From NCBI GenBank assembly GCA_021811405.1, contig JAJZOZ010000002.1:1-59978 (forward strand): a DNA stretch of 59,978 nucleotides, in the 5' to 3' direction. This stretch comes from a bacterium (lineage in GTDB: Bacteria; Elusimicrobiota; Elusimicrobia; Elusimicrobiales; UBA9959). Of the stretch, positions 9,522 to 54,370 are shown one piece after another. Each line of letters begins with the position of its first letter. Within the stretch, counting starts at the first letter, position 1. The notes beneath the pieces were generated by a model. The model searched no databases, was not told where the DNA came from, and saw nothing but the letters and a program-made list of their open reading frames with translations. The translations under genes were made by a program, and so were the position numbers.

Positions 9522-9523
9522 CT

Positions 9524-10647: not shown

Positions 10648-10654
10648 GCCGTCC

Positions 10655-11062
10655 TCACTTCTTCATCAGCAGGCTCTTCACTTCGCAGACGGCCTTCCGG
10701 CCGTCCTCAACTATCTTGACCGCTAGCCTGTCGAAATCCAGCGTCTGCCTGTAGGCGAACGCGGAGGTCATCATGTTTATGTTGACCCCGCAGATCACCG
10801 CGCTCTTCGCGATGTCCTTGGCCAGCGGCAGCACCACGTTCATCGGGGTGCCGCCCGGCATGTCTATCAGGAAGATCATCCCGTCCTCGGAGCGCATCTC
10901 CACTATAGCCGAGGAAATGGCATCCCGCACTCGCTCCAGCGTCATGCGCGCGGAGATGGAGACGTTCTTGAGGCCCTCGTGCTGGGCGCCCACTATGCCT
11001 TCGGCCGCCTCTATCAGGTAGGCGCCGAACTCGCCGTGCGTGATGACTATGATGTTTATCAT
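10655..11062 (-). CDS. PTS mannose-family EIIA component
   Basis: 135 aa. MINIIVITHGEFG carries the EIIA-Man His10 motif. Confidence 0.9.
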   Translation of the reverse strand: MINIIVITHGEFGAYLIEAAEGIVGAQHEGLKNVSISARMTLERVRDAISSAIVEMRSEDGMIFLIDMPGGTPMNVVLPLAKDIAKSAVICGVNINMMTSAFAYRQTLDFDRLAVKIVEDGRKAVCEVKSLLMKK

Positions 11063-11091
11063 AAGAACTCCGGCCGCGTCCCGGCGCGGCG

Positions 11092-13452: not shown

Positions 13453-13480
13453 CTTGTCCTCCATGCATGCAGCTCTTGCT

Positions 13481-19800: not shown

Positions 19801-19843
19801 AATTAGCGTTCCTAAAAACAACAATACCGCCGCGCGGACGCGG

Positions 19844-46800: not shown

Positions 46801-48052
46801 GGAGGCCGTTGGTCCAGCCCGCCGAAATGGCCGCCGAGGTCATGTCGTGGAAGAACTGATAGCCGGAGATCTGCGCGAACTGCGACTGTACCGCGTAGGA
46901 GCGCTGCGGCACTGCTACTCCGCCGATGGAGGAATCCACCGGCATGGCGGAATTGGTGGAGGAATCGTAGGAACCCACTATGCGCGCGTATGCGCGCCTG
47001 ATCGTTATCCCCTCCTCGCGCAGGAACACCTGCGCGCCCAGTACGGCGTCCGTGACCGCGGCCAGACCCTGGCCTATGAAGGTCTTGGCCGTCTTGGTCT
47101 TGACCGCCGAGTTGCTGTCAGCGATATAGGTAAGCACCACCTCGCCGCCCAGCGTATTGACGGGGCTCTGGACCGTCACCACGTTCAACGTCTGCACGGT
47201 GCCGGTGGAGAAGCCGGGCATGATGTCGGAATTGGACAGGTATCTGAACTCGTAGGAATCGCGCCGGGAACCGTCCATGTTCATGGTGGGCTCGGCTGCA
47301 TAGCCGCTGATCCCCGCGTAAACAGTGCCGTCGGCGGTGGAGCCGCCGCTCTGCCTGAAGCCGCGCAGCTCCACCCACTGCTGCTGCAGGCTGTAGCCGG
47401 AATCCGCTATCCCGGCCAGGTACTGCAGGGTCCTGGCGCCGGCCGGCTGCTGGGCGGTATAGGCCGCTATGCCGTTGACATAGTCCGAATAGACCGGGAA
47501 ACGCACCGTCTTGGCCACCTGCGGGGACTGGTCGTCGTACTCGTAGGTGACGTACAGCGTCATGCTGTGCATGTTGCTGGCCGGCCCGGTGATGGCGACC
47601 CCGGCGGTGAACTGCGCGCCGGCGGCCAGGTTGGCCAGTTGCGCGCTGATGACGGAGGTCACGTCCGCCCTGGCGAAAAGGCGTATGGACTCGCCTGACT
47701 GGGCCGTATACTGGACCGAGGTGAAGCGCGCGGTATTAGCGGCCGCTCCGGCGTCGAAGTAAATGACCAGCGGGTTGATATTGGTGGCGCTGACCGCTAT
47801 GCCCTCGTAATGCAGCCAGGCGCTGCGTATGACCTTGCCGTTCTCCGGCAGCTTTATGGTCCTGGAAGTGAAGGTCGTCTTGGAGCCGGAAGTCTTGTCG
47901 GTATTCGAGTAATAGCCGCCGAAATTGTACTCGACGGTCTTTATCTGCGTATCGGCCGCGGCCGGGGACGCGCAGAGCGCGGCGCAGAGCAGCAGCAGCG
48001 GCCGCAAAGCGGCCCGCCACGCTCTTCCGTTATATCCAGCGGCCTTCGGCAT
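19844..48052 (-). CDS. Giant secreted multi-repeat surface protein (~9,402 aa)
   Basis: A single uninterrupted frame (track 19844..48538). It is trimmed to ATG 48052 because the upstream 486 nt overlap the well-supported Rrf2 gene in another frame. MPKAAGYNGRAWRAALRPLLLLCAALCASPAAADTQ is a good Sec signal peptide. Domain content is listed in the sub-features. Confidence 0.9.
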   Translation of the reverse strand: MPKAAGYNGRAWRAALRPLLLLCAALCASPAAADTQIKTVEYNFGGYYSNTDKTSGSKTTFTSRTIKLPENGKVIRSAWLHYEGIAVSATNINPLVIYFDAGAAANTARFTSVQYTAQSGESIRLFARADVTSVISAQLANLAAGAQFTAGVAITGPASNMHSMTLYVTYEYDDQSPQVAKTVRFPVYSDYVNGIAAYTAQQPAGARTLQYLAGIADSGYSLQQQWVELRGFRQSGGSTADGTVYAGISGYAAEPTMNMDGSRRDSYEFRYLSNSDIMPGFSTGTVQTLNVVTVQSPVNTLGGEVVLTYIADSNSAVKTKTAKTFIGQGLAAVTDAVLGAQVFLREEGITIRRAYARIVGSYDSSTNSAMPVDSSIGGVAVPQRSYAVQSQFAQISGYQFFHDMTSAAISAGWTNGLQVGTTIYAANSATGAHGMELIITYDYTNGAAHTDDYEVLAGNDTNGTVPSDTFPFGAWYPETEGTKTLREAYTYTDFLNNSGTTQDFNTTVDFNGNAPETAFHRTTTEDCTVNQFYQNLVQFSTFPAVVTANYALSTSRGLMGGRAAINYSFVPFPKLPESLVQKANGAALAQGAWTNARELRFEGVLASSMNVDNIALVAEVKPNAAAFDESALSTGPVFNYNTVAASSYAVVSGLVSGTVYHWRAAGFGDGGRGRWVNKGGNPDFGVDYSSPPAPALAAIVPVDRVNLNASPPLLDWEDVTDIDGSGLKNYELQVATSADFATVTYSSSPLASMAQPAALAQNYYYWRVRSLDNAGNTGVYSSTRAFRVDLSTPVITSNMGTGDQVWRNTNSGLYDVDFNDDGGSLISKLQVRATSGPAQTGTDFGGGWVDLPLTINATYYTTDWALPAAFWTSLQSWTTNYISVRAIDYSTNTATLSDAFKVFKDTVPPVVTNGEAGGDLTWRKAGRNYNVDFADPYSKLAGAVYAARAAAGGAGAVLFSTTALAGVGGASYTADWALNFAGLGGDATNYITVEVYDIAGNTTTVTDAFRVLKDTTPPAYTNNVAGGDLTWRKAAGTAYDFRFADSAGSWLNGAIYSAWTGPGQNGALKVSSVAITGVSGPSYTTPWQVAFASLGGDSTNYITVEFYDVAGNTATVTDAFKVLKDTTAPSVPSLLTPADGYKTNGAALSFDWGDSSDGSGSGVTNYLLQLATSTDFTTISYSSQPAVSAASLPLVAGSTYYWRAASSDTAGNYSAFSAYRSLLVDLSTPTINDSQAGDTKWRNANGGLYSVFFNDAGGSLLSYFQVKLTTGPSQTGTTLYDWTTIASGINSSSYSSPWALPAAAWNAIPSGTTAYVSVRAYDNVGNSTASADSLFYVLKDTVPLAITNSQSGDAAWRNANPGSVYNVSFADTGGSGIDSIQYTAWTGPGQTGTRRLDWTFISSGTPYDNSYAAPWGVSASSWPALAEGYNYISVRVWDVAGTTTSLDDVFYVLKDTTAPSAQDGMAGGDAQWQKDPGKLYNVDFYDTGGSLLNAIEYSVWSEPGQKGTQRKTWSPIVTAPLGAASYIADWPVDFTSLAEGAATNYVSLRFTDLAGNSSTYADAFYISKDKTLPTIADNQFGDDSWRSSSGTAYDVGFADAGGSLLSSFELRITTGPALTGTLVQDWAAQQSAINSASYPAGWKLAQAQWDALPAGISYVSARVTDNAGNQQANNDVFYVLKDTSPPSIADNQPGDSSWRAVSGLYNVDFADEGGSLLSGFQVKATTGPGQTGTLAADWTDAATGINAASYAADWQLPSAFWNLLPSGTSYISVRVFDHAGSTVSLTDAFYVLKDTSAPVIANGQAGDDAWRRFGGTAYTVGFGDAGAGLASAAYEAWTGPGLTGVNAVPLTAIPGVSGAAYSVPWSVDFSLLAQGTNYISVTVTDQLGHSAALQDAFRVLKDNGSPVITDNQAGDDVWRGTGGTLYNVDFGDLTSGLTTAQYRVTSLPAQGGTVLKDWTGIVYSPGGLSSYTTDWPVDFAAIPSGTTGYVSVRVYDNAGNPAQVNDAFHVLKDTVPPYMVIVSTPADGYGPYLANPGAVFDVDFFDAGGSGIAAPQYRVTEGPGGTGALVKDWTNIATLSGATYYTQNWGADFYSLAQLPATNYFSLRVTDLAGGTSDYADAFKLFRSSFPMGLAINQAGDAVWRTANNGTYNVDFFSNNAALNLSSFSVQAWTQPGRTGELSADWAKVLDINATYYYTDWSLPQPFFDSLKETTNYISVRLWNVNSTSMTVEDVFYVRKDTSPPVITDLQGGDNIWRASAGTVYNIDFADPGSLLTTAQYRISGLPAQAGLLLKDWTDIVSSPAGQPSYTANWPVDFAALQSWTTGYVSVRAYNQAGLSASANDVFYVRKDTTPPYAVSLEAGATYYQSSNGRLYNVDFHDPGQESGLLRYQLRASTHTGNYAPYLLDWTDAANISGGNYASDWPLPAAIWDSLDSGVTAYISVRVFDAALQSSDTYNAFSVWKDTAPPYVTVNQPGDDTWRLTDPGAVYDVDFGDLGSGATTAQYRLYSGPGGTGTLLKDWTDIFGAPAGTPLYSANWAVDFAAAREGANYVGVRVFDRGGLATAAQDAFYVLKDTTPPVIADNQAGDYAWRGSPGTLYDVDFFDRASGLSAIEYRVSTAPALGYPVSDWLPANILTGYPTYYTDNWSVSFSTLAENTTNYISVRAYDRLGLASVSSDVFKVFKDVTLPAIADNQPGDDLWRNSSGTLYGVSFADAGGSLLSRFQTLLMSGPAQTGAQIAGWTDILSGIGSASHSAPWALPESLWQPLPEGQSYVSVRVYDNAGNAREISDVFYVKKDTTPPSIADYQGGDGVWRAANTAVYDVRFADTGGSLLEGARVKLTEGPAQTGAVIADWTPVLSNINAASYSTPWPLTAALWNAIQSGVTAYVSVDVADGAASTTTLSDAFYVLKDTVPPTAADLQSGDAAWRNSNAGAYAVHFADEGGSLLSKVQVKASSAPAGAGAHAFGYTDLLTGIGSASYPSDWQLTPALWSLLLPGTNYISARVYDNAGAFSDYADVFYILKDTQPPSGTVTPPAFSGALGFNVPYSASDAGPSDVQYVKLYYTMATGVPYSWTQFGTTFSASPIAFTAPAGGTAGFRLVVYDKAGNRDETDPPTSDTPPEAATVVDLTPPSVVNNQTGDAVWRNAGGTLYNVDFSGGGGSLLSAAQYKATSSPAQGGTVLKDWTYIAQNINAANYSADWAVDFAALKSSFNYVSVRVWNQAGTTTTANDVFYVKKDTEAPAFADNQAGDDVWRQADPGAVYNVGFNDPYSLLSRVQYSASSVPGGASGNIKGWTDIASGISAASYSQSWGVDFLSLTSGVTAYISARAYDLAGNVAVSTDAFYVLKDTVPPASADNQAGDDVWRASNSGLYNVDFADAGGSRLLKAQYGAWTSTGMAGAGLVPWTDISPSPAWLTSYTADWQLSAGAFTLLQSGTSYVSVRVMDNAGSTTTLADVFYVRKDVAGPAISGNQAGDDAWRSANTGVYDVDFADQLSGLASFEVKVTTGLNQSGTVLADWTPVSALSGASYTANWALPPAVFAAMREGANQVSVRALDSAGNGSALSDAFYVRKDTSGPVITDNQAGDDVWRASNSGLYNVDFADDKSLAAKFQLKAMTGAGQTGTLLFDWTDAVAGINAASYTADWSIPQAQWDLLAPGTSYISVRAFDMAGSTSSLADVFYVRKDTAPAPAIGALAGVTGAEGVIALSWTAPDDGGAAVSSYLVKFSSYIVIAAGNFDTADTYTQSWTPVGPGSPESYNLTGLAPNTAYHIAVKSVDRAGNISAVSNTATASAGPDTTPPGAITDLAAQQGGFDGQIALSWTAVGDNGVSLGTATAYQVRYRTDQAVTSALLWDGANIYAQAWVPQYPGVPEAQGIDNLTPGVTYYWAVKAVDEVANTSPLSNSPSAPAKVGEGTPGMFMFGNGTGNTPYVRKWTPPSFAGVQTSLAANAAAGAVARHVIVRASPLRNEKLAGILFSDGTLQIQRYNGLNGQWTNEWSTTTIGATDSAYRGFDIAYEQNTGRAVVLYQGAAVGTLYYNIYDGSSWTGAQTLAAGDPAAAAVWVRLEARPGSSELMAAFSNLSSNQLTAARWTGSLWSDVTTIVNNLGLTTYQNFDVAWESLSGHCLVSYGGTAVTGKAITWLWNGVSWAQFTTTEFTFIGADGNSNWLRLASDPNSNYIGAASIDSVRDWNAAIWDGTGWFPSATENASVARNGNQSRTIDAAWTRDGKFVVASAHRSLPTVLYSYWSQAGGWATTLAAAYSVGNWSNVVYGVELEPDTKSNNLMLTGWSSSRDLRGAAWSGSVFTLDPTPHTTTISDRNYMPAMLAIDRHDIVPPTVTDNQPGDDAWRGTNTGVYNIDAADTGGSHLRGIQTRVYSGPNQTGALLEGWTTQVSTSGVDVYTADWPLSAGTWAAMKEGYNYVTVRSTDGSDNTSLAPITDAFYVKKDTTPPTLPALSLPADGAFLKDPAVFFDWTDSSDLASGVAAYELQVATSADFAAPAYSAAPSVSGSTSAALASGMYYWRVRAVDLVSNYSAYTSTRAVYVDTAPPVAVDAQAGDDVWRNASGTLYAVHFNDAGGSLLDTVSYAVYSGPGRTGAQLVPFSGGVIASGIAAPAYNSDWALSPTNWALLPNGTSYVSVQSSDRAGNSASSDDVFYIRKDVSAPVITDNQPGDDVWRAVPGALFNVDFADAGGSQLAGFQLKITSGPNQTGTVLSDWFYRATAVNAASYAQDFDLGISTWLLLPEGTSYISARAWDNAGNSSTLTDAFYVRKDTSPPSAVAGVSPADGKVTNSASPLLDWTDAADAGSGISGYEVYVATSQDFAVNYASAATAGSQYPASLPSGLFYWRARARDNAGNYGAYGSTFSVRVDTAPPAVADAQAGDDAWRSAGGTLYNVSFADAGGSHIDSLEYSAWSGPGRTGVNHIPWTVITSTPLGSDSYSSTWGVDFSLLGDGTNYVSVRVWDAAGSTVTAQDVFYVKKDAYSPAIVDNQPGDDVWRAAPGALFNVDFQDTGASLLSKFQLKITSGPNQTGTVLSDWFDRSAAINSASYTQDFDLGISTWLLLPEGTSYISARVWDNAGNSASLSDVFYVRKDTTPPSITDSQAGDDVWRPVNSGSYAVSFADTGGSRLSYFQVKATTGPAQTGTITADWTTVASGLAAGSYPGGWTLPQAVFDSLASGLNYLSVRVYDGAGLSAALSDAFYVRKSTAAPRILDNQAGDDVWRNAPGTLYDVDFEDSGASGLSAAQYKVTSAPGQGGTLVKDWTYIASGINAPSYTADWAVDFAALAEGVTNYVSVRVWDVAGATTAVSDVFYVRKDVTAPSVANNQLGDAAWRSSSGTVYNVDFADAGGSGLSRFEVKVTTGPGLTGTLVADWYPQAASINSNSYTADWALPASTFTALPEGPGMVSVRVYDNAGNSAELDDAFYVMKDTTPPSAPAAVSPADLAPRATLSPLLDWTDSSDGSSGIAGYELRAATSASFSPVAYSAAPAASQQAAALPSGATWYWQARARDNAGNYSGYSAYYRVLADTVAPVVTDSQPGETNWRNSDPGAVYNVPFSDDMTGLDTMQYSAWTGPGQTGSNSVPWTVISSGTPRLAYPGPWSVNFSLLAAGTNYISARAWDAAGSTATRSDVFNVLKDTSAPAMLDNQAGDDVWRAANPGAVYDVDFLDLYSGVATIQYRITSQPAQGGTLLADWTDVASGLAVSTYSANWGLSAASWSLLPEGASYVTVRAYDRLAQSSLLADVFYVRKDTTPPTASDNQADIALARSQADVNAMNVDFHDTGGSLLSKAQYAVWTQPGRTGGEVVTWTDIAAGINAADYLADWPVNYMALPNLAVSYVSARVYDNAGGVSYYNDVFSVYKEGSGPLIINGQAGDNAWRAANTGLYNVDFQAESGFNLDYFQVTAATSAAAPSYLVAWTSAAYNIGSTVYTADWSLPQAVFDALAPGRNYVSLAVFDLLPSSSTLGNAFYVLKDTVPPSLGLNQAGDAAWQNAAGKTYNVDFFDPLSGLSTAQYRITTLPAGAGAVLKDWTDIAYPTGAASYTADWPVDFSALQEWTTGFVSVRAFDELAQSSASADAFYVLKDTTPPAAVSQSSPADGALFSTGAVSFAWTASSDLRSGVSAYELQLSTSQEFAQVSASSVTAAASASVSGLAGGAYFWRVRAGDAAGNYAAWSSTRSFTAATSSPTITNGQASPTPWYLSDPGAVFNVSFQDLVSGLTTGQYRITAAPAEGGTLVKDWTDIFSTPSGSAGYSAAWPVDFAALREGQNYVSVRAFNRVDFSSKAVDAFVIRKDTSAPAIADNQAGDTTWRRASGAVYDVDFSDLGSGLATAQYRITSAPAGGGTLLKNWTGIFSSTGIASYTANWGVDFFALAEGATNYVSVRAFDVLGSSRELADVFYVLKDVTNPAILNNQPADNLWHASDPGAVYNVGFSDLGGSRLDRFQTRITSGPAGTGTLAQDWTDRVLAINATYYNQLWGPDFAVLGEGQNYVSVRVYDGAGNSAQQADVFVVRKDTTPPSVQNNQAGDYVWRGANTGVYNVDFADAGGSGVDHFQVKATTDAAGAGTPLFDWTTLVSAINAQSYTADWQLTSQLWDLLGPGTSYISVRVFDTAGSSAALAGAFHIRKDTRTVTLTDNQLGDDVWRSSGNALYDVDAQALGGSPLDRFEVRSSTLPGNLGPFTSGWTAAVSGLNAYTYTADWGLPAPVFDAMLSGQSNYVSVRAYNQAGLFAELADVFYVKKDTVAPQVTNNIAGGDLSWRNGPGALYNVDFADAGGSLLSGFELRVSTVPGAGPYLFDWTPIQTGIGAASYTTDFAIPPSSFSLLAEGATNYVSLSAYDVAGNTSTVADAFRVFKDTTPPSLADNQAGDSYWRNSSGTVYNIDLADTGGSNLSKVQARASYNAGTLGPWYFDWSDAVTGINAASYTADWPLPQTLWDLLGEGTSYISVRVWDNAQSSATFGFQPFFILKDTTPPAFVNGEAGGDAAWRSAGRAYNLDFADPMSGLAALEYSASTAPASADGGVKGWTAIAGPSGALYSADWPLDFAALREGVTNYVSVRAWDVAGSTAVLKDAFYVKKDTTPPTAQNLQSGEFSWRNSNGGVYSVHFADTGGSLVSKFQLKASTGPGGTGIQAFDWTDNITGIGLASYPVDWPLSLGVWNSLYDSATNYVSVMVFDGAGSTYTITDAFRVLKDTTPPAVTGNQAGDGVWRTAAGTLYDVDFADYGSLLSSAAYSAWTGPGLTGAQVKGWTQLFSSRTVLSTSDWAVDFAALAEGYNYVSVRAWDVAGNMGAASDVFYVRKDTSPPSVADLQDGDTTWYKANPGPVFDVDFSDSGIGVSTAAYEAWTGPGRTGAQVAPSTPIFSGAPLPAYTQNWGVYGADWALLAPGTNYITVTAWDALGHSSTSVDVFYILKDTVPPSAITTLTAVPSAGQAGEGGIDASWTAPGDSDLTGSASYYMIRYKTGSAFTGQADFDAAAVYVSTLVPKAAGSPEGLVLSGFTAGATYYLAVEAVDKAGNSGPLSNPTSSYAGTDTTPPGAIADLAAVMADFQGQISLTWTAPGEGVKGVANAGTATSYIVRYAPFLITGANFASPAVSTYTQTWSPAAYGLPEIRVLDGLTPGATYSIAVKAVDEAGNVGPISNVPVSSATPAGAAAGMIVYGSGASNIPVYRNWTPDIWGAQGGSLVTGATVRWAVLKSVPVVANAKIGGFLASDNSLKLLKWDGLASAWSDITPSPAPAPGGSATRKFDLAPESLTGRMLAVYNNGTLGTVSYAVWSATASVWAGAPAPLVLTGLTGDVNWVRLKAMPGTDRVLLMALDANGRLTAAVWTGSAWTSVQNLTTAASMATTECFDGGWESQSGNAVALWGAGTATAYKIWRSASSTWDAATPAGPAVGSTSVYWLRVAADPTTNRLGASIMTVSPGWYVSIWQSTLGTEAWSASPAADTSMSSNLGRITDAAWESQSGRFLAAAVDNIGNFDTQFDYITWSGGTWTPASPSVTTANTNTTFANDIRLLALYPDPNTNKITALGMDISGNLKTTLWGGTSWAGTAASSNFQHTNTVSDFSYEPAGIAFDRQDPVPPTVIDNQAGDDSWRNSRVFYNIDATDSGGSHLASVQTRVLSQPAGGGALVQDWTDQVSGINADSYTADWQFAQGTWDLLPQGISYVTVRARDSAGNSSPVITDAFYVKKDTAPPTVTNNLAAGYDGAWRNAAQGAVYDVDFADTGGSGLSSLEYSASSGPNRTGIQTLGWTVISSGTLGSIYTSNWALNFSLLGHGTNYISVRAMDNASSTTTLVDAFRILKDTQPPAAITGLAAAPGPVRGSVSLSWTAPGDDGAVTDNTGGYYTVKLATFQIITDALFSAASTYAQAWAPAAAGQPEQRVLYGLDVGKTYYFAVKTTDKANNVSPLSNQASSPPQTANLYINEVYAAGATAAEDWVELFNNTASTITLTGWKLVYDQGSIDLPGLETTVWTGTSVDTVNVNGFFAAAPSLDLNGAQSYHLILKDSGGNVVDRVQWPALQSGRSFARVTDGNADYFDADPTPTKGYANAITTDPVKINEVAYGALADQFIELYNTGASTPALAGYYLRGSYNGRFRFTRKIYARSYALIDASSLSDEALPYASVFGASGLNAAGDFAALENAAGQTVDRVTWQSGANYSLRNYKSALVSAAAWAPANASGSIGRSPSEGSDTGSNAADFAASASATPASRNNGAGQGAANTLAYPAASQILPRRFPLRLTLGADSSAGTGNYLVLTRTGGAADNYSPHLYRLADIGFAPASLAAQSTSQLGISFYDQDGRGLSDGAAYKLVLNTDNGAVSAPPVVRAGVTYDAAVHSVSAAPTAPLRLGEGYSGSMVAIRVDDTSLSGRNSVALASVTVRLLDPGLVPLNTAQARSLFSGVSLVKDSAGGTSGLYESGLDTQVTASLPNSGITLDASGTLLLPVPPAAAAWTPAASTAAYFVVFTAAQYASTQTPNAFRVSFDPSTDLVLTDVPSAEPQAPAAGAAVQTSSTVIIVSAKPPAGTFWPFDAGTQAGVTAPVDYYTGGLVQSAVYVPGLDGTLRGLRLDGTSKWDFLTFPLSSVKTSPMAREESGGVYLYFADVAGDIYKIRDNDASSQQIWKRPLGVSVVSNPIDSSAKLYFGAADNRVYCLNKADGSDCLGWTYDAGFTAAISGTLALDDRTPGVNASWIGLEDGKVVRFLTASGAISSWFQTGAAIKSSPFADAAYLGGNNLYITSTDGKLYARTSANLTTQPSGWADFPSGSPIYTSPFKDLDTGKYVYFGNDAGRFYKVDAASGTEIMSFQAGGPIRSSPVVIPGTWLGLPAGEDYAYFGCDDGYIYAVNVNTGQLRTGWPVPTGGPVRADPVIDTGSLTLIVGSSDGKTYVLSIGP
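19847..20900 (-). other. C-terminal PQQ/BamB-like beta-propeller domain of the giant protein (approximate bounds)
   Basis: Repeated blade motifs: GDIYKIRD, NRVYCLNKADGS, GKVVRFLTASG, GKLYARTS, GRFYKVDAASGTEI, GYIYAVNVNTGQLRTGW, GKTYVLS. Confidence 0.7.
21900..22760 (-). other. Two tandem lamin-tail domains (LTD) in the giant protein (approximate bounds)
   Basis: LYINEVYAAGATAAEDWVELFNNTASTITLTGWKL...GNVVDRVQW and VKINEVAYGALADQFIELYNTGASTPALAGYYL...GQTVDRVTW match the LTD pattern (INE..EWIELYN...L.GW.L....D.V.). Confidence 0.7.
23790..25060 (-). other. W-rich propeller-like insert 2 (~420 aa) of the giant protein (approximate bounds)
   Basis: GMIVYGSGASNIPVYRNW...FDRQDPVPPTV. It is paralogous to insert 1 and is preceded by two FN3-like domains (25090..25780). 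Confidence 0.55.
32750..33075 (-). repeat. Recent intragenic duplicate, copy 1 (offset 966 bp from copy 2)
   Basis: Shares exact runs with 33716..34041. One example is GGAGGTGCCCTCCGGCAGCAGCAGCCAGGTGGAGATGCCGAGGTCGAAATCCTGCG at 32828..32883, matching 33794..33849. Another is a ~42-nt run, GAACCAGTCCGAGAGCACCGTGCCGGTCTGGTTGGGGCCGGA. Confidence 0.8.
33716..34041 (-). repeat. Recent intragenic duplicate, copy 2
   Basis: See copy 1. The encoded modules (..FQLKITSGPNQTGTVLSDWF.R..A.N.ASY.QDFDLGISTWLLLPEGTSYISAR.WDNAGNS..) are about 85% identical. Other module pairs are clearly more diverged by eye (not quantified). Confidence 0.8.
35050..36295 (-). other. W-rich propeller-like insert 1 (~415 aa) of the giant protein (approximate bounds)
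   Basis: GMFMFGNGTGNTPYVRKW...IDRHDIVPPTV. It has recurring ..A(A/V)W.G..W.. strands roughly every 55-60 aa. It is preceded by two FN3-like domains (36330..36980). Confidence 0.55.
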
Positions 48053-48063
48053 ACCCGTTAAAT

Positions 48064-48474
48064 TCAGTCCTCCGACGTTCCCTCGCGCGCGCGCCTTTCC
48101 TCTTCCCGCATCATCTCCACTATGTCCTGCACCGTAAGCCCCACCAGCCAGTGGTTGACCTCGGCGCGCAGGGTCTCGTACAGCTTGTTGGAAACCTGCT
48201 CCCGCTCCGCTTTCGGCGCCCCGTTGAAAGTGAAGGCCTCCATCAGCTGCCAGACGCTGATGCCGTCGAGGTCCTTGCGCAGGCGGTAACCTTTGCCCTT
48301 CTGGGACTCGACCATGCCGGCGTGCACCAGCGCCTGCAGCACCTTGTTGCAGTACGGCGCGGGCAGGCCCTGGAAGCGGGCAATATCGGCCACCTGGTTC
48401 CACTGCCCGCCGTTGTTCTGCCCCAGGTAATGCAGGCAGGACAGTCCGTAGGCTAAAGTGCGGTTCATCCTCAT
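48064..48474 (-). CDS. Rrf2-family transcriptional regulator (no Fe-S Cys triad)
   Basis: 136 aa. MRMNRTLAYGLSCLHYLGQ...IARFQGLPAPYCNKVLQALVHAGMVESQKGKGYRL is a typical Rrf2 winged helix. No three-Cys cluster-ligand motif is seen around residues 90-105. GGAG lies 7 nt upstream of ATG 48474. The stop is 11 nt upstream of the giant gene start. Confidence 0.9.
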   Translation of the reverse strand: MRMNRTLAYGLSCLHYLGQNNGGQWNQVADIARFQGLPAPYCNKVLQALVHAGMVESQKGKGYRLRKDLDGISVWQLMEAFTFNGAPKAEREQVSNKLYETLRAEVNHWLVGLTVQDIVEMMREEERRAREGTSED

Positions 48475-48606: not shown

Positions 48607-48646
48607 ATTGATATCAATAGTATAGCAGAGGCCGGTCTTGTGTCAA
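48607..48646 (-). promoter_or_regulatory. Near-consensus sigma70 promoter plus a 12-bp palindrome at the predicted start site
   Basis: The minus strand reads TTGACA (48646..48641), a 16-nt spacer, then TATACT (48624..48619). ATTGATATCAAT (48618..48607, a perfect palindrome) follows immediately. Confidence 0.45.
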
Positions 48647-48666: not shown

Positions 48667-49701
48667 TTATACACCGGCCCCGCGCCGCATAATAGCCGCC
48701 ATTTCGCAGGCCGCGCTATTAGGGGCAAGGACGTCGTCCTCCTCCAGCAGGCTTATGCCCGGACAGAGGCTGCAATATTCCCTGTCGCGGCATTTGACGC
48801 AGCTTTTCTGGTCGGCCGCGGAAAGCCGGCGCCATTTCTTCAGCCAGGGGGATCCGCGCCAGATGGAGGAGAAGCGGCTCCGCGCGAGGTTCCCCAGCCT
48901 TACCGGCAGCTGCAGACAGGGATAAAGCCAGCCGGAAGGGTCCACCGCGCAGACGTTGCGGCCCGCGCCGCAGATAAAATCGTCGGCTCCGGGCCCCGCC
49001 GCGGCCTCCGCGGTGGACGGGGGAGGAGGGACCTTACTGACCGCCCGCGCCAGGGCAGGGCCGGAGAGCCGGAAGGCGGAGGCGCCGGGGTGGCCGTCGT
49101 TCGCCGGGGCTATCACCGGGTCGAACGAGACAGCGAAGCCTTCCGCCGAGGAGAGGCGGGTCAGCCAGCCGGCCTCCTCCGCGTTCAGGGTCATCAGCGG
49201 CGACTTCATCCTGACCCGCACCCCGGCTTTTCGCAGCAGCCTGGCCGCGGCCAGACTGCGGCGGAAAGAGCCCTTCAGCCCGGTCACGCGGTCATGCAAC
49301 TCCGGGCGGCCATAGAAACTTATCCCGAAGGAGGATATCCCGGCTTCCTTAAGCTCACCGGCCAGGGCCGGGGTCAGGCCCAGGCCGGTGGAGAACACGC
49401 TGACGTCGAACCTGAGGGAGGCGGCATGGCGGCAGAGTTCCGCCAGGTCCTCGCGCAGCAGCGGCTCCCCCCCGGTGAATGTCAGATAAAGGGCTCCGGC
49501 CCGGGCCAGGTCCGAAATGATGCTCTTCCATACCGCCGCGGACAGCTCCCGCGGCGCCCTGGCGCGGCCGCGCGTTTCCGGCAGGTAGCAATGGCGGCAG
49601 GAAAGCGGACAGCGGCGGGTGAGCTCCGCCGTAGCCGAGACGGGGATATTGCGCTCCAGCGTCAGGCGGTTAAGCCTGGCGGATGGCAGGCGGTCAGCCA
49701 T
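48667..49701 (-). CDS. Radical SAM/SPASM-domain peptide-modifying enzyme
   Basis: 344 aa. CPLSCRHC (CX3CX2C), the SPASM segment CGAGRNVCAVDPSGWLYPC, and terminal CVKCRDREYCSLC. Confidence 0.9.
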   Translation of the reverse strand: MADRLPSARLNRLTLERNIPVSATAELTRRCPLSCRHCYLPETRGRARAPRELSAAVWKSIISDLARAGALYLTFTGGEPLLREDLAELCRHAASLRFDVSVFSTGLGLTPALAGELKEAGISSFGISFYGRPELHDRVTGLKGSFRRSLAAARLLRKAGVRVRMKSPLMTLNAEEAGWLTRLSSAEGFAVSFDPVIAPANDGHPGASAFRLSGPALARAVSKVPPPPSTAEAAAGPGADDFICGAGRNVCAVDPSGWLYPCLQLPVRLGNLARSRFSSIWRGSPWLKKWRRLSAADQKSCVKCRDREYCSLCPGISLLEEDDVLAPNSAACEMAAIMRRGAGV

Positions 49702-50023
49702 GGGAAAGAAAAAGGCGGGAGAGAACGCGCCTGGTCAGGGAATAGGCAAGGCCGGCCCGGCCGCGCGAGAGCGGGCCGCCGGAGACGGCCGTGCCGCTGA
49801 TATCACTGAACGGGACGAAATGCCTGTCCAGGCGGCCGGCGTCGTCGGCCAGCCACGCCCCTTTTTCAGTGACGGACAGCACCCGGTGCAGCAATCTGGC
49901 GCCCTGGAACAGGTAAACGGCGCAGTCTCCGGGGCCCGGCCTGTCGTCGCTCAGCAGCACCAGCTCGCCGGGCCTGAATACCGGCAGCATGCTGGAGCCT
50001 TCCAGGCTGAAGCAGGCAGGCAT
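49694..50023 (-). CDS. Mini S24/S26-family peptidase-like protein (109 aa)
   Basis: Track ORF trimmed to ATG 50023 (MPACFSLEGSSMLPVFRPGELVLL...). GSSMLP resembles the catalytic Ser box and LLHRVL sits where S26 has (K/H)RV. The stop overlaps the radical SAM start by 8 nt. The start lies 2 nt after the precursor stop. Confidence 0.6.
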   Translation of the reverse strand: MPACFSLEGSSMLPVFRPGELVLLSDDRPGPGDCAVYLFQGARLLHRVLSVTEKGAWLADDAGRLDRHFVPFSDISGTAVSGGPLSRGRAGLAYSLTRRVLSRLFLSHG

Positions 50024-50025
50024 CC

Positions 50026-50160
50026 TCAGGAGAACTTCTTGAGGGTCTTGCAGGCCAGCTGGCTGATGGGGCCGCTCGTGCATTTGCCGCAGGCCAGCGC
50101 GGCCTTCTCGAAGACCTTCTCGGTCTTGATGGAGGGCTTTTCGTATTTTTTCTTTTTCAT
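50026..50160 (-). CDS. Unannotated 44-aa candidate RiPP precursor peptide
   Basis: My translation is MKKKKYEKPSIKTEKVFEKAALACGKCTSGPISQLACKTLKKFS*. AGGA lies about 8 nt upstream. It is below the size cut-off of the ORF track. It is flanked by PqqD (19 nt upstream) and the peptidase-like gene (2 nt downstream). Confidence 0.6.
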   Translation of the reverse strand: MKKKKYEKPSIKTEKVFEKAALACGKCTSGPISQLACKTLKKFS

Positions 50161-50179
50161 ATGTGGTCCTGAAATATGG

Positions 50180-50452
50180 TCACGCGGTCTTTTTTAAGAG
50201 GCCGCAGTCTATCAATTCCTTTATAAAGTCCCGGGAGTCCGCGCGGGCCGCGTCCCGGCCCACCTCGAACTTCCCGGTAAGGGCCGCCACGATGCCGTCC
50301 TCGTCCTGGCCGGCCGCCAGGCACTCCCAGATGACGGCCGCCGTGCCGTTCAGCTCGTGCAGCCGGGCGGAGGCGGCATCCACTACGAACAGCTCCTCGC
50401 CCATGCGCCTGAAGGCCAGGTCCTTCCGCATATTTACCGCTTTGTCCGTCAT
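50180..50452 (-). CDS. PqqD-family peptide chaperone (RiPP recognition element)
   Basis: 90 aa with PqqD-like LFVVDAASARLHELNGTAAVIWECL. The start overlaps the kinase stop (ATGA). Confidence 0.85.
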   Translation of the reverse strand: MTDKAVNMRKDLAFRRMGEELFVVDAASARLHELNGTAAVIWECLAAGQDEDGIVAALTGKFEVGRDAARADSRDFIKELIDCGLLKKTA

Positions 50453-51252
50453 ATCAGCTCCAGGAAAGCGGCGTCCCGCTTCGCGAATTCCAGACGTTTC
50501 GGCCTTGCGGCCTCCAGCAGGCCGCAGGCATTACTCAGCGCCAGGGACGCGGCTTCCCCCCCTTTTTCGAAGTTCACCAGACAGCGCAGCAGCAGCTTCA
50601 GGGCCTCGCCGCCGCCGCAACTATGCAGCGAGTGGCTGCGCGCCTTGGCCAGGATGTAGACCCCCCCCAGAGGCCAGGCGCCGGGCCTGCCGTCGGCCCG
50701 CATCTCGCCCCAGAAAGGCGAGCCGTGTACCGCCCAGCCGCGCTTGCCGGGCCGCAGCAGGTTTATCTCGTCGCTTATCACTTCGGCCCCGCCGGCGGCA
50801 GCGGCCAGCCTGGCGAGGGTGGACTTGCCTGCCCCGGACTTGCCGAGGAACACGTACGCCCGGCCGTTCTTCAGCAGGCCGGCCGAATGCAGCATCAGGC
50901 CTCCGGAACGGAGCAGCAGCGAGCTCAGCAGAGAGCGCAGGAAAGCGTCCAGGCACTGGGCGTCGGACGCCGCGGCCAGGCGGCCTTTCCCGGTCCGCAG
51001 GTCCAGCCCGGCGCGGAAATCCCCGCGCTTCAGCGTCAGGGTGGTCCCCGCAAGGGCCACCGCGGGCCTGAACGGCAGGTCTCTCCTCTGGACGGACGAG
51101 ACCTCGAACTCGCGGCAGGCCCCGACGGGGCGGGAGAAGGCGCCGTAGCGGCGCCTCAGCGACGAAACGATGCCTTCCTCGTCAGGCCCAAAAGAGAATC
51201 CCAGACCGGCGATCCTCAGCCCCAGACGGGGCGTCACAGCCCCGGGGGCCAT
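50449..51252 (-). CDS. HprK-related (HPr kinase C-terminal-domain-like) kinase
   Basis: 267 aa. LMLHSAGLLKNGRAYVFLGKSGAGKSTLARL is the P-loop in an HprK_C-like context. There is no N-terminal HprK domain. The start overlaps the end of the upstream PilX-like gene by 19 nt. Confidence 0.78.
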   Translation of the reverse strand: MAPGAVTPRLGLRIAGLGFSFGPDEEGIVSSLRRRYGAFSRPVGACREFEVSSVQRRDLPFRPAVALAGTTLTLKRGDFRAGLDLRTGKGRLAAASDAQCLDAFLRSLLSSLLLRSGGLMLHSAGLLKNGRAYVFLGKSGAGKSTLARLAAAAGGAEVISDEINLLRPGKRGWAVHGSPFWGEMRADGRPGAWPLGGVYILAKARSHSLHSCGGGEALKLLLRCLVNFEKGGEAASLALSNACGLLEAARPKRLEFAKRDAAFLELI

Positions 51253-52499
51253 TCGCCCTTGACCTCGTACCAGGTCCCCTTCACTATGGTCACCGGGCTG
51301 GTATACAGCCTTATGTTGGACGCGATGTCGGGATCGTAGTAGATAAGGAAGTTGGAAGTGTCCGTAGTGCTGTCGTTGGCCGACACGACCACGCCATGGA
51401 AGATGCCGTTGCCGCCGCCGGACAGCTCCATGTTGCCGCCGGCGTAAAGCATGCCGTGCGTCAGGACCCCGGTAAGAGGGTAGGTCTTGCCCGTCGCGAC
51501 GTAGTTGGAACTGACCGCGTCGGCGTAAGTGGCTGGGCCGGCCGGGTCGAAGATCTTGTAATGCGCCCAGTTGGCACCGTACTCCTTCCAGGCGTAAGGG
51601 GGGAGCGCGGCGTTGTAGCTGCCGTCGGGGGCGTTGGCGGAACCGCCGTTGCCGGCAAAGGTGACGTTGCCGAGCGCGATCACGTTGCCGGTGATATGGT
51701 TGCCGCCGGCGCCGGATTTAAAGATGGCGTTGCCGGTGATATAATAGGTCTTTCCGCTCTTATCATGGCATCCCATGAAGGTCCTGTCGCCTACGGTGTA
51801 ATAGTTGCCGCCGCAGGGCGAGGCGCCGCTGCCCGTGGCCGAACTCAGGTAGAAGCCGAAATTGATGGTCGGCGCGGAGGGGACGGGGTAGTAAGACCAC
51901 CAGTAAACATCGTCGGTGGAGGCGGTGGACGAGCCGCCGTCCTGCGTGGTGACGTGGCCGGCGCTGTAGAACCTCGGGAAGGTGCGCCCCGTGGCGATGA
52001 TGCTGCCGTTGGAGATCACCGGCCCCCATTCCACGTGCGGGTTGCCGCCGCCGTTGGTGAGGACCTTCTCCGACCTTATGGCGAACTTCACCCCGGTGTT
52101 GGTGTTGACCAGGTACATGCGGATGCGGCGCACCTGCCTGCTGCCGAGGTCCTTGCCGGCGGCCTCGACTATCCTCGCGTCCGGGTTGGCGGGGTCCGAG
52201 CTGATCCTTATCGTGTAGTAGCCCCCGCCTATGTCGTCGTAGACCTGGTCGAAATTATAGCCCGCTATCGTGCCGGTGGAGGTGGCGTTCCACATGTCCA
52301 CGCTCTCCAGTATCTTCCAATACGCCCGGTCCGCGCCGCCCTCCGCCAGATGGAAAGCCGTTGTGGACTGTTTCTCCTTGACCGACCATTTGCCCTCGTT
52401 CCGCGTGAACAGGTTCATGACCGGGAACATCAGCATCAGGAAGAGCAGGATGCTGATGACCATGGTTATGGCCATCTGACCGTGTCTGCTGTTCTTCAT
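51234..52499 (-). CDS. PilX-like pilus assembly / minor pilin-like protein, paralogue 2
   Basis: Track ORF trimmed to the in-frame ATG at 52499 (MKNSRHGQMAITMVISILLFLMLMF..). It shows the PilX_N-like pattern: a G-Q/M-A hydrophobic helix followed by STTAFHLAEGGADRAYW. The C-terminal part is Gly/Asn-rich and beta-helix-like. Confidence 0.68.
   Translation of the reverse strand: MKNSRHGQMAITMVISILLFLMLMFPVMNLFTRNEGKWSVKEKQSTTAFHLAEGGADRAYWKILESVDMWNATSTGTIAGYNFDQVYDDIGGGYYTIRISSDPANPDARIVEAAGKDLGSRQVRRIRMYLVNTNTGVKFAIRSEKVLTNGGGNPHVEWGPVISNGSIIATGRTFPRFYSAGHVTTQDGGSSTASTDDVYWWSYYPVPSAPTINFGFYLSSATGSGASPCGGNYYTVGDRTFMGCHDKSGKTYYITGNAIFKSGAGGNHITGNVIALGNVTFAGNGGSANAPDGSYNAALPPYAWKEYGANWAHYKIFDPAGPATYADAVSSNYVATGKTYPLTGVLTHGMLYAGGNMELSGGGNGIFHGVVVSANDSTTDTSNFLIYYDPDIASNIRLYTSPVTIVKGTWYEVKGEWPPGL
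52288..52478 (-). repeat. Near-identical 5' segment shared by the two PilX-like genes (copy in paralogue 2)
   Basis: A 113-nt exact match (52288..52400 equals 53630..53742). About 95% identity continues to 52478/53820. Elsewhere the paralogues are much more diverged. Confidence 0.8.
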
Positions 52500-52572
52500 A
52501 TCATGTCCAAAGGCCCGCCTGTCAGGCGGTCCTTCCGGGAAATCCCCGTGCCGGTCGTCATGCTCCGGATGG

Positions 52573-53853
52573 TCAAGGCAGCCCCGCCGGCCACTCGGCC
52601 TTGATCTCATACCAGTCCTTCCTGGAGATCGTCAGATGTCCCGCCGACAGTTTAACCGCTTCGGCGACCAGGGAGTCGTAGTAAACGGTATAATTGGAGG
52701 TTTCCGTCTCGTATTCGCCGGCGGTCATCACCAGCCCGTGAAAGACGCCGTTACCGCCGCCCTGCAGCGACATCTCCCCCCTGGCGTAGAGGAAGCCGTG
52801 CACCAGAACGCCGCTCAGAGGATAGGTCTTGGCCGTTGCGACGTAGTTGGAGCTGACCGCGTCGGCCCAGGTGGCCGGCGCGGCCGGGTCGAACGTCTTA
52901 TAGTGCGCCCAGTTGGCCCCGTACTCCCTCCAGGCATAAGGAGGAATATTCGCGCTGTAGCTGCCGTCCGCGCCGTTGGAGGAGCCGCCGTTCCCGGAAA
53001 ATTCCACGTTGCCGAGCGTCATCACGGTGCCGGTTATATGGTTGCCGCCGCCGCCGGCCTTGAAGATGACGTTGCCGGTGACGTAATACGTCTTCCCGCT
53101 CTTGTCATGGCAGCCCATGAAAGTCCTGTTCCCCACGGTATAATAGTTCCCTCCGCACGGGGAAGCGCCGCTAGCCTGGGCGGAGGATAAGTAAAAACTG
53201 AAGCTGACGGCCGGGGCGGGGGGCACCGGATAGAAAGACCACCAGTACACGTCGTCGGTGCCCGCGACGGCCGAACCGCCGTCCTGTGGCGTGACGTGGC
53301 CGGCGCTGTAATACCTGGGGAAAGTGCGCCCCGACGCCTGTATCTCCTTGTAAGATACCACCGGTCCCCACTCCACCTGGGAATTTCCCCCTCCCAGTTC
53401 GGCCTCGTCCTCGGTCCTCACTGCGGAATCCACGCCGGTGTCGGTGTTCTCCAGGTACATGCGGACGGCGCGCAGCTGGGAACCGGTGCCGTCCCTGCCC
53501 ACCGCTTCGACTATCCTGCGGTCCGGATTGACCGGGTCGGAACTGATCTTCACGGCGTAAGAGCCGCCGCCTATGTCTTCGTAGACCTGGTCGAAATTAT
53601 AGCCGGGTATGGTGCCGGTGGAGGTGATGTTCCACATGTCCACGCTCTCCAGTATCTTCCAATACGCCCGGTCCGCGCCGCCCTCCGCCAGATGGAAAGC
53701 CGTTGTGGACTGTTTCTCCTTGACCGACCATTTGCCCTCGTTCTGCACGAACAGGTTCATGACAGGGAACATCAGCATCAGGAACAGCAGGATGCTGATG
53801 ACCATGCTTATGGCCATCTGTCCCGCCCTGCGGTTCCGCGGATATTTGGTCAT
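52573..53853 (-). CDS. PilX-like pilus assembly / minor pilin-like protein, paralogue 1
   Basis: 426 aa. MTKYPRNRRAGQMAISMVISILLFLMLMFPVMNLF...STTAFHLAEGGADRAYW, with the same architecture as paralogue 2. Confidence 0.68.
   Translation of the reverse strand: MTKYPRNRRAGQMAISMVISILLFLMLMFPVMNLFVQNEGKWSVKEKQSTTAFHLAEGGADRAYWKILESVDMWNITSTGTIPGYNFDQVYEDIGGGSYAVKISSDPVNPDRRIVEAVGRDGTGSQLRAVRMYLENTDTGVDSAVRTEDEAELGGGNSQVEWGPVVSYKEIQASGRTFPRYYSAGHVTPQDGGSAVAGTDDVYWWSFYPVPPAPAVSFSFYLSSAQASGASPCGGNYYTVGNRTFMGCHDKSGKTYYVTGNVIFKAGGGGNHITGTVMTLGNVEFSGNGGSSNGADGSYSANIPPYAWREYGANWAHYKTFDPAAPATWADAVSSNYVATAKTYPLSGVLVHGFLYARGEMSLQGGGNGVFHGLVMTAGEYETETSNYTVYYDSLVAEAVKLSAGHLTISRKDWYEIKAEWPAGLP
53630..53820 (-). 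repeat. Near-identical 5' segment shared by the two PilX-like genes (copy in paralogue 1)
   Basis: See 52288..52478. The offset is 1,342 bp. Confidence 0.8.
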
Positions 53854-53856: not shown

Positions 53857-54363
53857 CTAGTTCATTATCCTCACCTTTTCCACGGCCATCTGCAGGGCCT
53901 TGGTGCCGCCCTCGTAAGTGGCCTTTTCGAACGTGATCGAGATGGACAATATGCTGTCGTCGTCCGTGCGCGGGTAGGTGAAAGCGATGTAGCGCAGGTT
54001 GTTTGCTATCATCTTGCCCGCGACGCCGCCGGTGGCCTGGTAAAGCTTGTTGCCCTGCTGGTAGTAGGAGACGGTGTCAATCCCTCCCGATGAGTTGTAC
54101 TTGTTGAAAGTGACGCGGGAATGGGGCGGCTGGCCGGAGACGGCGTCCACCGTGATGCTGGAGGCCACGGCCTGCCGCAGGTCCCGGTTGATGTTGGCCA
54201 GCGCGCCGCGGGCGTTCTTCTGTATCTCCACCCTCGCGGTCATCAGCTGCACGAACTGGTAGGTCCTGATGAAGGTCTTCGGGGCGGCCAGGACCAGGAC
54301 GCCCAGGATCCCCACCACGAGCATCATCTCCATCAGCGTGTAGCCGCGTTTCCAGACGTTCAT
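53857..54363 (-). CDS. Prepilin-type N-terminal cleavage/methylation-domain protein (PilW/GspJ-like minor pilin)
   Basis: 168 aa. MNVWKRG/YTLMEMMLVVGILGVLVL is a canonical class III signal (G|(F/Y)TL.E). Confidence 0.8.
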   Translation of the reverse strand: MNVWKRGYTLMEMMLVVGILGVLVLAAPKTFIRTYQFVQLMTARVEIQKNARGALANINRDLRQAVASSITVDAVSGQPPHSRVTFNKYNSSGGIDTVSYYQQGNKLYQATGGVAGKMIANNLRYIAFTYPRTDDDSILSISITFEKATYEGGTKALQMAVEKVRIMN

Positions 54364-54370
54364 ATTCCGG

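Follow-up and report, generated by a model that had tools for sequence, protein, structure and literature searches.

A predicted peptide-modifying operon in Elusimicrobia that joins a recognition element, kinase and peptidase module to a radical SAM/SPASM enzyme

A list of phosphorylated RiPPs (peptides that ribosomes synthesise and that are modified after translation) from 2025 comprises microcin C, paeninodin, pseudomycoidin, phospeptin and salivaricin 10, and the paper that gives this list makes no mention of radical S-adenosylmethionine (SAM) enzymes. In the linear polyphosphorylated peptide (LPP) clusters of Bacillota, the core genes include the RiPP recognition element (RRE) LppB, the HprK-like kinase LppK, an NTP-transferase as well as an exporter that is MsbA-like (Popov et al., Nat Commun 2026, PMC13381572). 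The LPP leader, YxxPxVLxHQxIxFET, is cut after T-1 in an RRE-dependent manner, for which F-3, E-2 and T-1 are required, and Ser3 of the core is polyphosphorylated by LppK, a step that precedes efficient cleavage (PMC13381572). LPP clusters are located in capsular-polysaccharide loci, LPPs and paeninodins are stated to be restricted to Bacillota, and neither radical SAM enzymes nor Elusimicrobia are mentioned in that paper (PMC13381572). The HprK-like kinases associated with lasso peptides, PadeK, ThcoK, SyanK and PsmK, have a catalytic His-Lys-Asp-Asp motif and specifically (poly)phosphorylate the conserved C-terminal Ser of their precursors (PMC9266682). Here, we analysed a five-gene cassette in a 59,978-nt stretch of DNA from a bacterium of the Elusimicrobiales (UBA9959; assembly GCA_021811405.1, contig JAJZOZ010000002.1), which as a whole is referred to as the window. 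We find that this cassette is an RRE-kinase-peptidase module of the LPP/paeninodin type joined to a radical SAM/SPASM maturase.

The pairing of an HprK-like P-loop protein with a PqqD homologue and a PqqE-like radical SAM/SPASM protein is shared with the SynChlorMet, GeoRSP and HPr-rel-A systems, which were defined in silico in NCBIfam/TIGRFAM and for which no precursor or product is known to have been reported. The individual parts of the cassette and two of their pairings, namely the LPP module and the one seen in these in-silico systems, are already known. In the literature searched, we found no description of the combination of a kinase, an RRE, a signal peptidase I (SpI)-like peptidase and a radical SAM/SPASM enzyme, nor of the precursor family with the pattern CGK...C-x6-S that is described below. 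An earlier note on this DNA had suggested that the cassette does not belong to a described RiPP class; in the literature searched, this holds for the exact combination and for the peptide family, but has to be qualified in that LPP and SynChlorMet each cover part of the combination.

All five open reading frames (ORFs) of the cassette lie on the minus strand and are tightly coupled (Table 1), as had been noted before. The kinase and PqqD genes share a 4-nt ATGA overlap, a 19-nt gap with an AGGA ribosome-binding site separates PqqD from the peptide ORF, 2 nt separate the peptide ORF from the mini-peptidase gene, which starts at Met21 of a 129-aa ORF, and the mini-peptidase and radical SAM genes overlap by 8 nt. 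The same five genes are found in the same order in nine of nine related Elusimicrobia loci (L001-L007, L015 and L016), and the cassette is therefore not a chance arrangement. The earlier note had further stated that the cassette has no lasso cyclase, B2 protease or exporter, which agrees with our results: the cassette and the genes listed for the related loci include neither a lasso cyclase (C) nor a B2 cysteine protease, and none of the five genes codes for an exporter.

Table 1. Positions of the cassette genes and of neighbouring features in the window
Feature	Position	Strand	Remarks
HprK/ScmC-like P-loop kinase	50449..51252	-	267 aa
Discrete PqqD-type RRE	50180..50452	-	90 aa
Precursor peptide ORF	50026..50160	-	44 aa
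Precursor leader MKKKKYEKPSIKTEKVFEK	50104..50160	-	YxxPxI RRE-binding motif and F-E-(T/K) end
Predicted 25-aa core AALACGKCTSGPISQLACKTLKKFS and stop codon	50026..50103	-	
ER/archaeal-type signal-peptidase-I-like mini-peptidase (predicted)	49694..50023	-	109 aa, without membrane anchor
Radical SAM/SPASM maturase	48667..49701	-	344 aa
Sigma-70-like promoter TTGACA-16-TATACT	48619..48646	-	11/12 consensus match only; between the radical SAM stop codon and Rrf2
Rrf2-family regulator	48064..48474	-	PF02082 at 2e-18
Two tandem PilX-like paralogues	51234..53853 (51234-52610, 52573-53853)	-	the copy next to the kinase gene overlaps its start
Two prepilin-type (N_methyl) pseudopilin-like genes	53857..56938	-	168 and 855 aa
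Giant secreted fn3/LTD/beta-propeller protein	19844..48052	-	9,402 aa with signal peptide; likely start ATG 48052

We consider it likely that the cassette is a RiPP operon, in which the 44-aa precursor is cross-linked, phosphorylated at its C-terminal Ser and freed of its leader to give an envelope-related product. In the pathway that we propose, where the sites, the order of the steps and the function of the product are predictions, the leader (MKKKK-YEKPSI-KTEKV-FEK/T) would be bound through its YxxPxI motif by the discrete PqqD-type RRE, which would present the precursor to three enzymes. The HprK/ScmC-like kinase would phosphorylate, possibly polyphosphorylate, the invariant C-terminal Ser, the radical SAM/SPASM enzyme would form at least one intramolecular cross-link within the invariant C-G-K...C region, and the signal-peptidase-like protease would cut the leader after F-E-T/K to release a 25-residue basic peptide.

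The small ORF, which codes for 44 aa here and 45 aa in related loci, occupies the same position in all nine related Elusimicrobia loci and is present in one copy per locus. A word-based search yielded 80 peptide clusters of 44-46 aa, except for three with N-terminal extensions, with the consensus MKKKKxYxKPx(I/L/M)KTEKVFETAALACGKCxxGPxxQLACKTLKKxS, and all named matches in the searches for relatives are Elusimicrobia. The leader residues Tyr, Pro and Phe are invariant (80/80 clusters) and the Thr of FET is present in 78 of the 80. In the predicted core, with the pattern AALACGKC..GP..Q.AC-x6-S, all 80 clusters (80/80) keep the stretch AALACGKC, the G, the Q, the last Cys and the C-terminal Ser, and in every one of them the last Cys is followed by exactly 7 residues. 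No hydroxyl residue of the core other than the C-terminal Ser is invariant. No gene product of the locus is more conserved than the peptide, with a mean identity of 85.5% in the eight loci compared (radical SAM enzyme and peptidase, 62%; kinase and RRE, 55-56%; pilin-like genes, 42-55%), and its codons differ by 305 synonymous versus 154 non-synonymous changes, which indicates that the ORF is translated and under strong purifying selection. The window peptide is matched by no Pfam or NCBIfam model, and NCBIfam holds none that matches the wider relatives tested.

These wider relatives come from a search of 1.84 billion representative proteins with a profile built on 77 Elusimicrobia peptides, which gave 430 clusters (at 50% identity) at E <= 1e-3. 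Among the best 150 of these 430 clusters, a [Y/W/F]xxPx-hydrophobic leader motif is present in 148, a C-terminal Ser in 148 (the other two end in Thr), C-(G/A/S)-K in 147 and the C-x6-S-COOH spacing, that is seven residues after the last Cys, in 133. One of the wider relatives comes from an Armatimonadota metagenome-assembled genome (MAG). A genome scan with the kinase alignment was dominated by the P-loop pattern, with at least 11 loci among the matches listed. In a Vicinamibacteria locus (L009), a mini-peptidase, kinase, PqqD and radical SAM gene stand in this order with a convergent small ORF (...KKPYEPPQIVSREPLEAVAAVCSPPGKANPGACPTGPLNS), and in a deltaproteobacterial (L008) and a Bdellovibrionales locus (L011) the kinase gene has beside it a small ORF that combines a KKxY.KP leader with several Cys and ends in Ser. 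Loci L010 and L012-L014 (Planctomycetota, Paenibacillus, Thermoanaerobaculia and Promineifilum) were dropped as other HprK-like systems, since no matching peptide, RRE or peptidase was seen in them.

When metagenomes were scanned with the radical SAM enzyme of L009, 253 relatives were retrieved, mostly on contigs that are soil- or rhizosphere-like by sample name. The counts for this sister family are based on 80 of the 253 relatives (L017-L096), and its taxonomy is inferred from one named MAG. Peptidase, kinase and PqqD genes lie directly upstream of the radical SAM gene in 26/26 loci with enough upstream sequence, a convergent peptide is present in 37/41 loci with enough downstream sequence, and all peptides detected (57/57) end in Ser, typically in ...C-P-x-G-P-I-S-S. 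The small ORF is consequently conserved beside homologous cassettes in both families, on which the RiPP reading of the earlier note had depended. Its proposal that the kinase targets the C-terminal Ser likewise gains strong comparative support, as this residue is kept in 80/80 Elusimicrobia, 148/150 wider and 57/57 sister-family peptides, in line with the preference of lasso-associated HprK-like kinases for a C-terminal Ser.

As the CxxC...C pattern and the extreme conservation of the peptide resemble those of small zinc-binding proteins, one might also speculate that the 44-aa ORF codes for a small Cys-containing metal-binding structural protein and is not a substrate, and that the enzymes act on the pilins or the giant protein instead. 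We regard this as very improbable: the ORF has a YxxP leader of the lasso/LPP type and an FET site beside an RRE, homologous small ORFs are found beside HprK-like kinases and RREs in unrelated contexts and phyla, and the second Cys of CxxC is missing in 87/150 wider relatives.

PqqD matches PF05402 (1e-14); among the NCBIfam models the one for the lasso-peptide PqqD chaperone fits it best, and among PDB sequences the lasso B1 proteins TbiB1 and TfuB1 do. In BLASTP comparisons, it matches four LppB RREs with E-values down to 9e-10 at ~25% identity, and less well the paeninodin B1 protein (E ~1). The mini-peptidase is recognised only weakly from its single sequence. A profile of eight orthologues (A2) matches human SEC11C and SEC11A at 3e-5, in an alignment that covers the SM.P, HRV and DD motifs; residues G9, M12, P14, H46-R47-V48 and D60 are invariant, and the Ser, His and Asp columns are conserved. 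The same profile matches LppS (sequences of Popov Supplementary Data 1) at 1e-8 to 7e-6 and, better still, at 1e-11 the RRE-associated SpI proteins of cluster 3 in the sequence-similarity network of the same study, an unexplored cluster with proteins from Acidobacteriota, Myxococcota, Schekmanbacteria and others (PMC13381572). By these sequence matches, the mini-peptidase is a relative of signal peptidase I of the endoplasmic reticulum (ER)/archaeal type (Ser/His/Asp) without a membrane anchor, which refines its former description as S24/S26-like and makes it the most likely leader peptidase. In the sister family, the peptidase (including the L009 protein, 8568-9599) has a Cys at the nucleophile position (G-x-C-M-x-P) in 36/40 cases and keeps the His, and looks like a Cys/His variant of the S26-type fold.

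The cassette and the LPP clusters are alike in that both have a discrete lasso-like RRE, a kinase that resembles HprK at the level of the superfamily, a soluble archaeal/ER-type SpI-like leader peptidase (Ser/His/Asp), a YxxPx(V/I) leader and an FET end, and both are located in cell-envelope loci. They differ in that a radical SAM/SPASM enzyme is present only in the cassette, whereas the LppN NTP-transferase and the MsbA-like exporter LppD are absent from the five genes, were not noted in the window flanks examined and do not appear in the precomputed Pfam lists of L001, L015 and L016. In the cassette precursor, the spacing between Y and FET is 2 residues shorter and HQ is absent, and the core is short, Cys-containing and nearly invariant with an invariant C-terminal Ser, whereas the C-terminus of LPPs is variable. 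The LPP phosphosite is not present here, since core position 3 is an invariant Leu. Finally, LPP clusters are patchily distributed in Bacillota, whereas the cassette is vertically conserved in Elusimicrobia.

For the kinase, weak matches to the NCBIfam models HprK_rel_A, ScmC and HprK_rel_B were obtained, and its relatives carry the precomputed Pfam label PF27840 'ScmC'. H122 (in MLHSAG), the P-loop GKSGAGKST (137-145) and S160-D161-E162 are invariant in the kinase family and align with the His, the P-loop and the A-D-D core of the genome's true HprK. The equivalents of the His-Lys-Asp-Asp motif of lasso-associated kinases are H122, K143, D161 and E162, all of which are invariant, and by analogy the cassette kinase is predicted to phosphorylate the precursor. 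Its likeness to LppK and PadeK is one of superfamily and motif, not of direct sequence alignment, and a PDB sequence search with the kinase profile gave generic P-loop matches only. The cassette kinase has no Pfam Hpr_kinase match and does not qualify as a bona fide HPr kinase/phosphorylase (Hpr_kinase_N plus Hpr_kinase_C). A bona fide HprK with both domains (Hpr_kinase_C at 3e-61) is encoded elsewhere in the window (11955-12917, minus strand), so that the cassette kinase is a separate, divergent paralogue-like protein. The true HprK gene sits in a block with genes for a ribosome hibernation factor, RapZ and EIIA/B/C/D components of a mannose-family phosphotransferase system (12931-13464, 11092-12630 and 8685-11062, all minus strand).

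The last gene of the cassette matches Radical_SAM at 1e-22, SPASM at 4e-7 and, in addition, Fer4_12. Cysteines C31/C35/C38, C244, C262, C301/C304/C310 and C332 are invariant, the enzyme has the full set of SPASM cysteines, and the location of CX3CX2C at residues 31-38 indicates that it has no fused N-terminal RRE. By sequence and predicted fold, its nearest solved relatives are SkfB, PqqE, SuiB and CteB, with anSME at rank 14, so that its assignment to the RiPP-type rather than to the anSME-like enzymes held up; the best single match, again by sequence and fold, is the sactisynthase SkfB. PqqE and SuiB form C-C bonds, SkfB and CteB form thioethers. With SkfB and CteB among the nearest relatives, a Cys-derived thioether is the most likely cross-link. 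The radical SAM enzymes of the sister family (including the L009 enzyme, 10796-11899) are 32% identical to the window enzyme.

Several observations weigh against the proposed pathway. The leader of the window peptide itself ends in FEK (codon 19 at 50104-50106), as do only 2/80 clusters, so that in this genome Lys takes position -1 of the predicted cleavage site. The cassette has no exporter, nor was one noted in the flanks examined. The best NCBIfam match of the radical SAM enzyme is the non-RiPP enzyme NirJ2, narrowly above the GeoRSP enzyme and PqqE, all three scores being far under their cut-offs. An hhalign comparison of the kinase with the true HprK is weak (25% probability), and the best PDB folds for its AlphaFold2 (AF2) model (pLDDT 89.7) are PEP carboxykinases (PEPCK). 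PEPCK and HprK are grouped in one P-loop kinase superfold, and the fold matches thus indicate a kinase of this superfold and not HprK itself. LppK, the kinase of the closest characterised system, targets core Ser3 and not the C-terminus, and position 20 of the predicted core is a near-invariant Thr/Ser (78/80) and offers an alternative kinase target.

The last two points also speak for a RiPP operon in which the kinase acts elsewhere, namely on the Thr/Ser at core position 20 or on a leader Thr, or serves as a scaffold or activating enzyme that depends on ATP, for instance through a phosphorylation step with subsequent elimination or transfer. In that case, the terminal Ser would be kept for another reason, such as recognition or for radical SAM chemistry at the C-terminus, as carried out by MftC in mycofactocin biosynthesis. 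Hydroxyl residues are indeed frequent at alignment column 56 (Thr/Ser/Tyr in 78/80 clusters) and at leader column 30 (Thr/Ser in 79/80), and the strict C-x6-S-COOH spacing could reflect a relationship between the Cys and the C-terminus instead of kinase recognition. However, the terminal Ser alone is invariant in all sub-families, including those without the other hydroxyl positions, and all characterised lasso-associated HprK-like kinases use a C-terminal Ser (PMC9266682). We therefore think it unlikely that the kinase acts elsewhere and prefer the C-terminal Ser as its phosphorylation target.

Doubt of a different kind concerns the cross-link. The Cys-rich core of the L008 peptide is encoded without a radical SAM gene within 20 kb, which indicates that the cysteines need not be the substrate of a radical SAM enzyme and that they may form disulfides instead. 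One can thus picture a RiPP operon without a Cys thioether, in which the radical SAM enzyme forms a C-C or other cross-link at the invariant Lys, as SuiB and WgkB do, or catalyses an epimerisation or a change at the C-terminus, and in which the cysteines serve for disulfides or metal binding. SuiB and PqqE are structurally as close to the cassette enzyme as SkfB and CteB, the C-G-K motif of 147/150 relatives recalls the W-G-K type, and the CX2CX5CX3C SPASM motif is lacking in 80/80 sister-family enzymes, the auxiliary-cluster content of which probably differs. Against this, the two cysteines are the most conserved core side chains across the sub-families with a radical SAM enzyme, and SkfB, as noted above, is the best single match. 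A chemistry other than thioether formation is possible, if somewhat doubtful, and a thioether remains our leading guess.

The cassette has in common with paeninodin- and pseudomycoidin-type lasso peptides an HprK-superfamily kinase, a PqqD-like B1 RRE, a YxxP/WxxP leader and a C-terminal Ser, which in these lasso peptides is the (poly)phosphorylation site, and differs from them by its predicted S26-like leader protease and its radical SAM/SPASM enzyme. SynChlorMet systems have two radical SAM/SPASM proteins, whereas the cassette has one and adds a clear precursor and an S26-like peptidase. The scores of the cassette proteins lie below the NCBIfam cut-offs both for SynChlorMet (TIGR04248-04251; score/cut-off: ScmC, 29.4/125; ScmD, 17.5/100; ScmE, 92.3/400; ScmF, 63/400) and for the other models (GeoRSP_rSAM, 110/400; geo_PqqD_fam, 24/100; HprK_rel_A, 30.7/200; PqqD_rel_X, 24.2/35). 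Sacti- and ranthipeptide systems (SkfB, CteB, PapB) likewise combine a radical SAM/SPASM enzyme and an RRE with a Cys-containing precursor; in the cassette, the RRE is discrete and not fused, a kinase and an S26-like peptidase are added, and the thioether is a prediction. A discrete PqqD with a PqqE-like SPASM enzyme and no exporter is also found for pyrroloquinoline quinone (PqqA/D/E), mycofactocin and QhpC/QhpD. These cofactor- or subunit-type RiPPs resemble the cassette in that the precursor is more conserved than the enzymes and the genes are vertically inherited with a physiological partner locus, but the cassette core has no Glu/Tyr or Val-Tyr motif, there is no partner dehydrogenase and a kinase is present. 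Chemistry like that of pyrroloquinoline quinone or mycofactocin was set aside because the core has no Glu/Tyr.

The genomic surroundings of the cassette bear on the function of its product. In the nine loci, the gene order is pseudopilin 855, pseudopilin 168, PilX-like, kinase, PqqD, peptide, mini-peptidase and radical SAM, followed by Rrf2 and then the giant secreted protein wherever the related contig reaches that far, with a gene for 395-405 aa before the giant gene in L004 and L016. The upstream pilin-like operon consists of genes for a GT2 glycosyltransferase, a 234-aa protein, two N_methyl pseudopilins and PilX-like proteins, with the cassette at its 3' end; the kinase gene start overlaps the PilX-like gene by 19 nt, and in L001, L004, L007, L015 and L016 the PilX-like orthologues likewise adjoin the kinase gene directly or run into it. 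Orthologues of the pseudopilins carry the precomputed Pfam labels N_methyl and CarboxypepD_reg. This arrangement is kept even where the kinase is only 43-45% identical. As far as the sequences tell, the cassette is co-transcribed with the pilin-like genes and vertically inherited in Elusimicrobia. On the other side, the likely start of the giant gene is 11 nt past the end of Rrf2, a spacing that suggests that the two form one unit behind the promoter-like site. Rrf2 separates the cassette from the giant gene in each of the 8 related loci that extend over this position. The cassette had earlier been placed between pilin genes and the giant gene; to this have to be added the Rrf2 gene and the promoter-like site, which intervene before the giant gene, and the overlap of the kinase start with the PilX-like gene. 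The suggested tie to the surface system finds its support in conserved synteny and gene overlap.

Vertical inheritance together with a position in a pilin-like operon upstream of Rrf2 and the giant protein suggests that the product probably serves the cell's own envelope or surface biology, and the ultra-conserved precursor and the envelope neighbours point, on the basis of synteny, to a physiological surface role rather than to a strain-specific antibiotic. Alternatively, the product could be an ordinary secreted antimicrobial or signalling peptide and its pilin/giant-gene neighbourhood a historical accident, given that the radical SAM RiPPs and lasso peptides characterised so far are mostly secreted and bioactive, that the predicted core is small and cationic, and that Rrf2 and the giant gene have a promoter-like site of their own in front of them. 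This seems improbable to us: antimicrobial RiPP cores are usually hypervariable, whereas this peptide is less variable than its enzymes; the cassette lacks an exporter and an immunity gene and has a single peptide copy; and its position is identical in 9/9 loci, including those with a kinase of only 43-45% identity, with an overlap of the PilX-like gene. We hence favour an envelope-related product.

Some further observations were made on the surroundings. Rrf2 is the second most conserved locus gene, with 82% mean identity in 8 loci, far above the enzymes and the pilin-like genes. The two PilX-like paralogues of the window are nearly identical in their N-terminal thirds, most related loci have a single copy, and the first PilX-like gene probably starts at 52499 (MKNSRHGQMAITMV...). 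The mechanical ORF of the giant gene extends to 48538 (9,564 aa) and overruns the Rrf2 gene. Downstream of the giant gene (15097-16632 and 16648-19824, minus strand), a PorV-like protein and a 1,058-aa PQQ_2 beta-propeller/fn3 protein that carries the C-terminal sorting domain of type IX secretion (Por_Secre_tail) are encoded, which hints that surface proteins here use a route like the type IX secretion system. In L003, two spermine-synthase-like genes lie between PilX and the kinase, and L005 has a 375-aa gene at the equivalent place. An MntA-like nucleotidyltransferase with an ArsR-type helix-turn-helix domain and a 135-aa partner are inserted between kinase and PqqD in L003 (8965-9985), probably as a type VII toxin-antitoxin pair; this nucleotidyltransferase (NTP_transf_2) was rejected as an LppN equivalent, since the insertion resembles MntA/HEPN-type toxin-antitoxin systems. 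Outside the Elusimicrobia, large secreted proteins adjoin the cassette in L008 (6277-8247) and L009 (12073-17358, minus strand); they have a common region, ...VVDV.DV.DEF..G...P.A...FL..A...W.PAP..., which looks like a gingipain/C25-type peptidase domain, and L009 also adjoins a gene that, on inspection, resembles those for Wzz/GumC-type chain-length regulators.

Taken together, the RRE, HprK-like kinase and signal-peptidase-like protease logic, first demonstrated in 2026, is extended from Bacillota to deep-branching, mostly uncultured phyla, and is seen here in combination with radical SAM chemistry. The older SynChlorMet-type cassettes are not known to have an obvious precursor, and the cassette fills this gap with one that has a predicted cleavage site and phosphosite, which makes the pathway directly testable. 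The precursor family is large and has a sharp signature, CGK ... C-x6-S-COOH, but no curated model, and has probably been missed by genome-mining tools. As a long shot, we speculate that the mature peptide is not a secreted natural product but a dedicated phosphorylated, cross-linked accessory factor of a cell-surface machine, which might serve the pilin-like fibre, the product of the neighbouring glycosyltransferase or the giant adhesin as primer, cap, carrier or regulator. If this were true, the [Y/W]xxP...FET | ..CGK..C-x6-S family, in which the bar marks the predicted cleavage site, would be a widespread, unrecognised class of envelope-associated RiPP 'cofactors' that spans Elusimicrobiota, Armatimonadota, Acidobacteriota-like soil bacteria and others. 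A peptide that is less variable than its enzymes and fixed in a pilus-like/giant-protein locus offers an entry to the little-known surface biology of Elusimicrobia.

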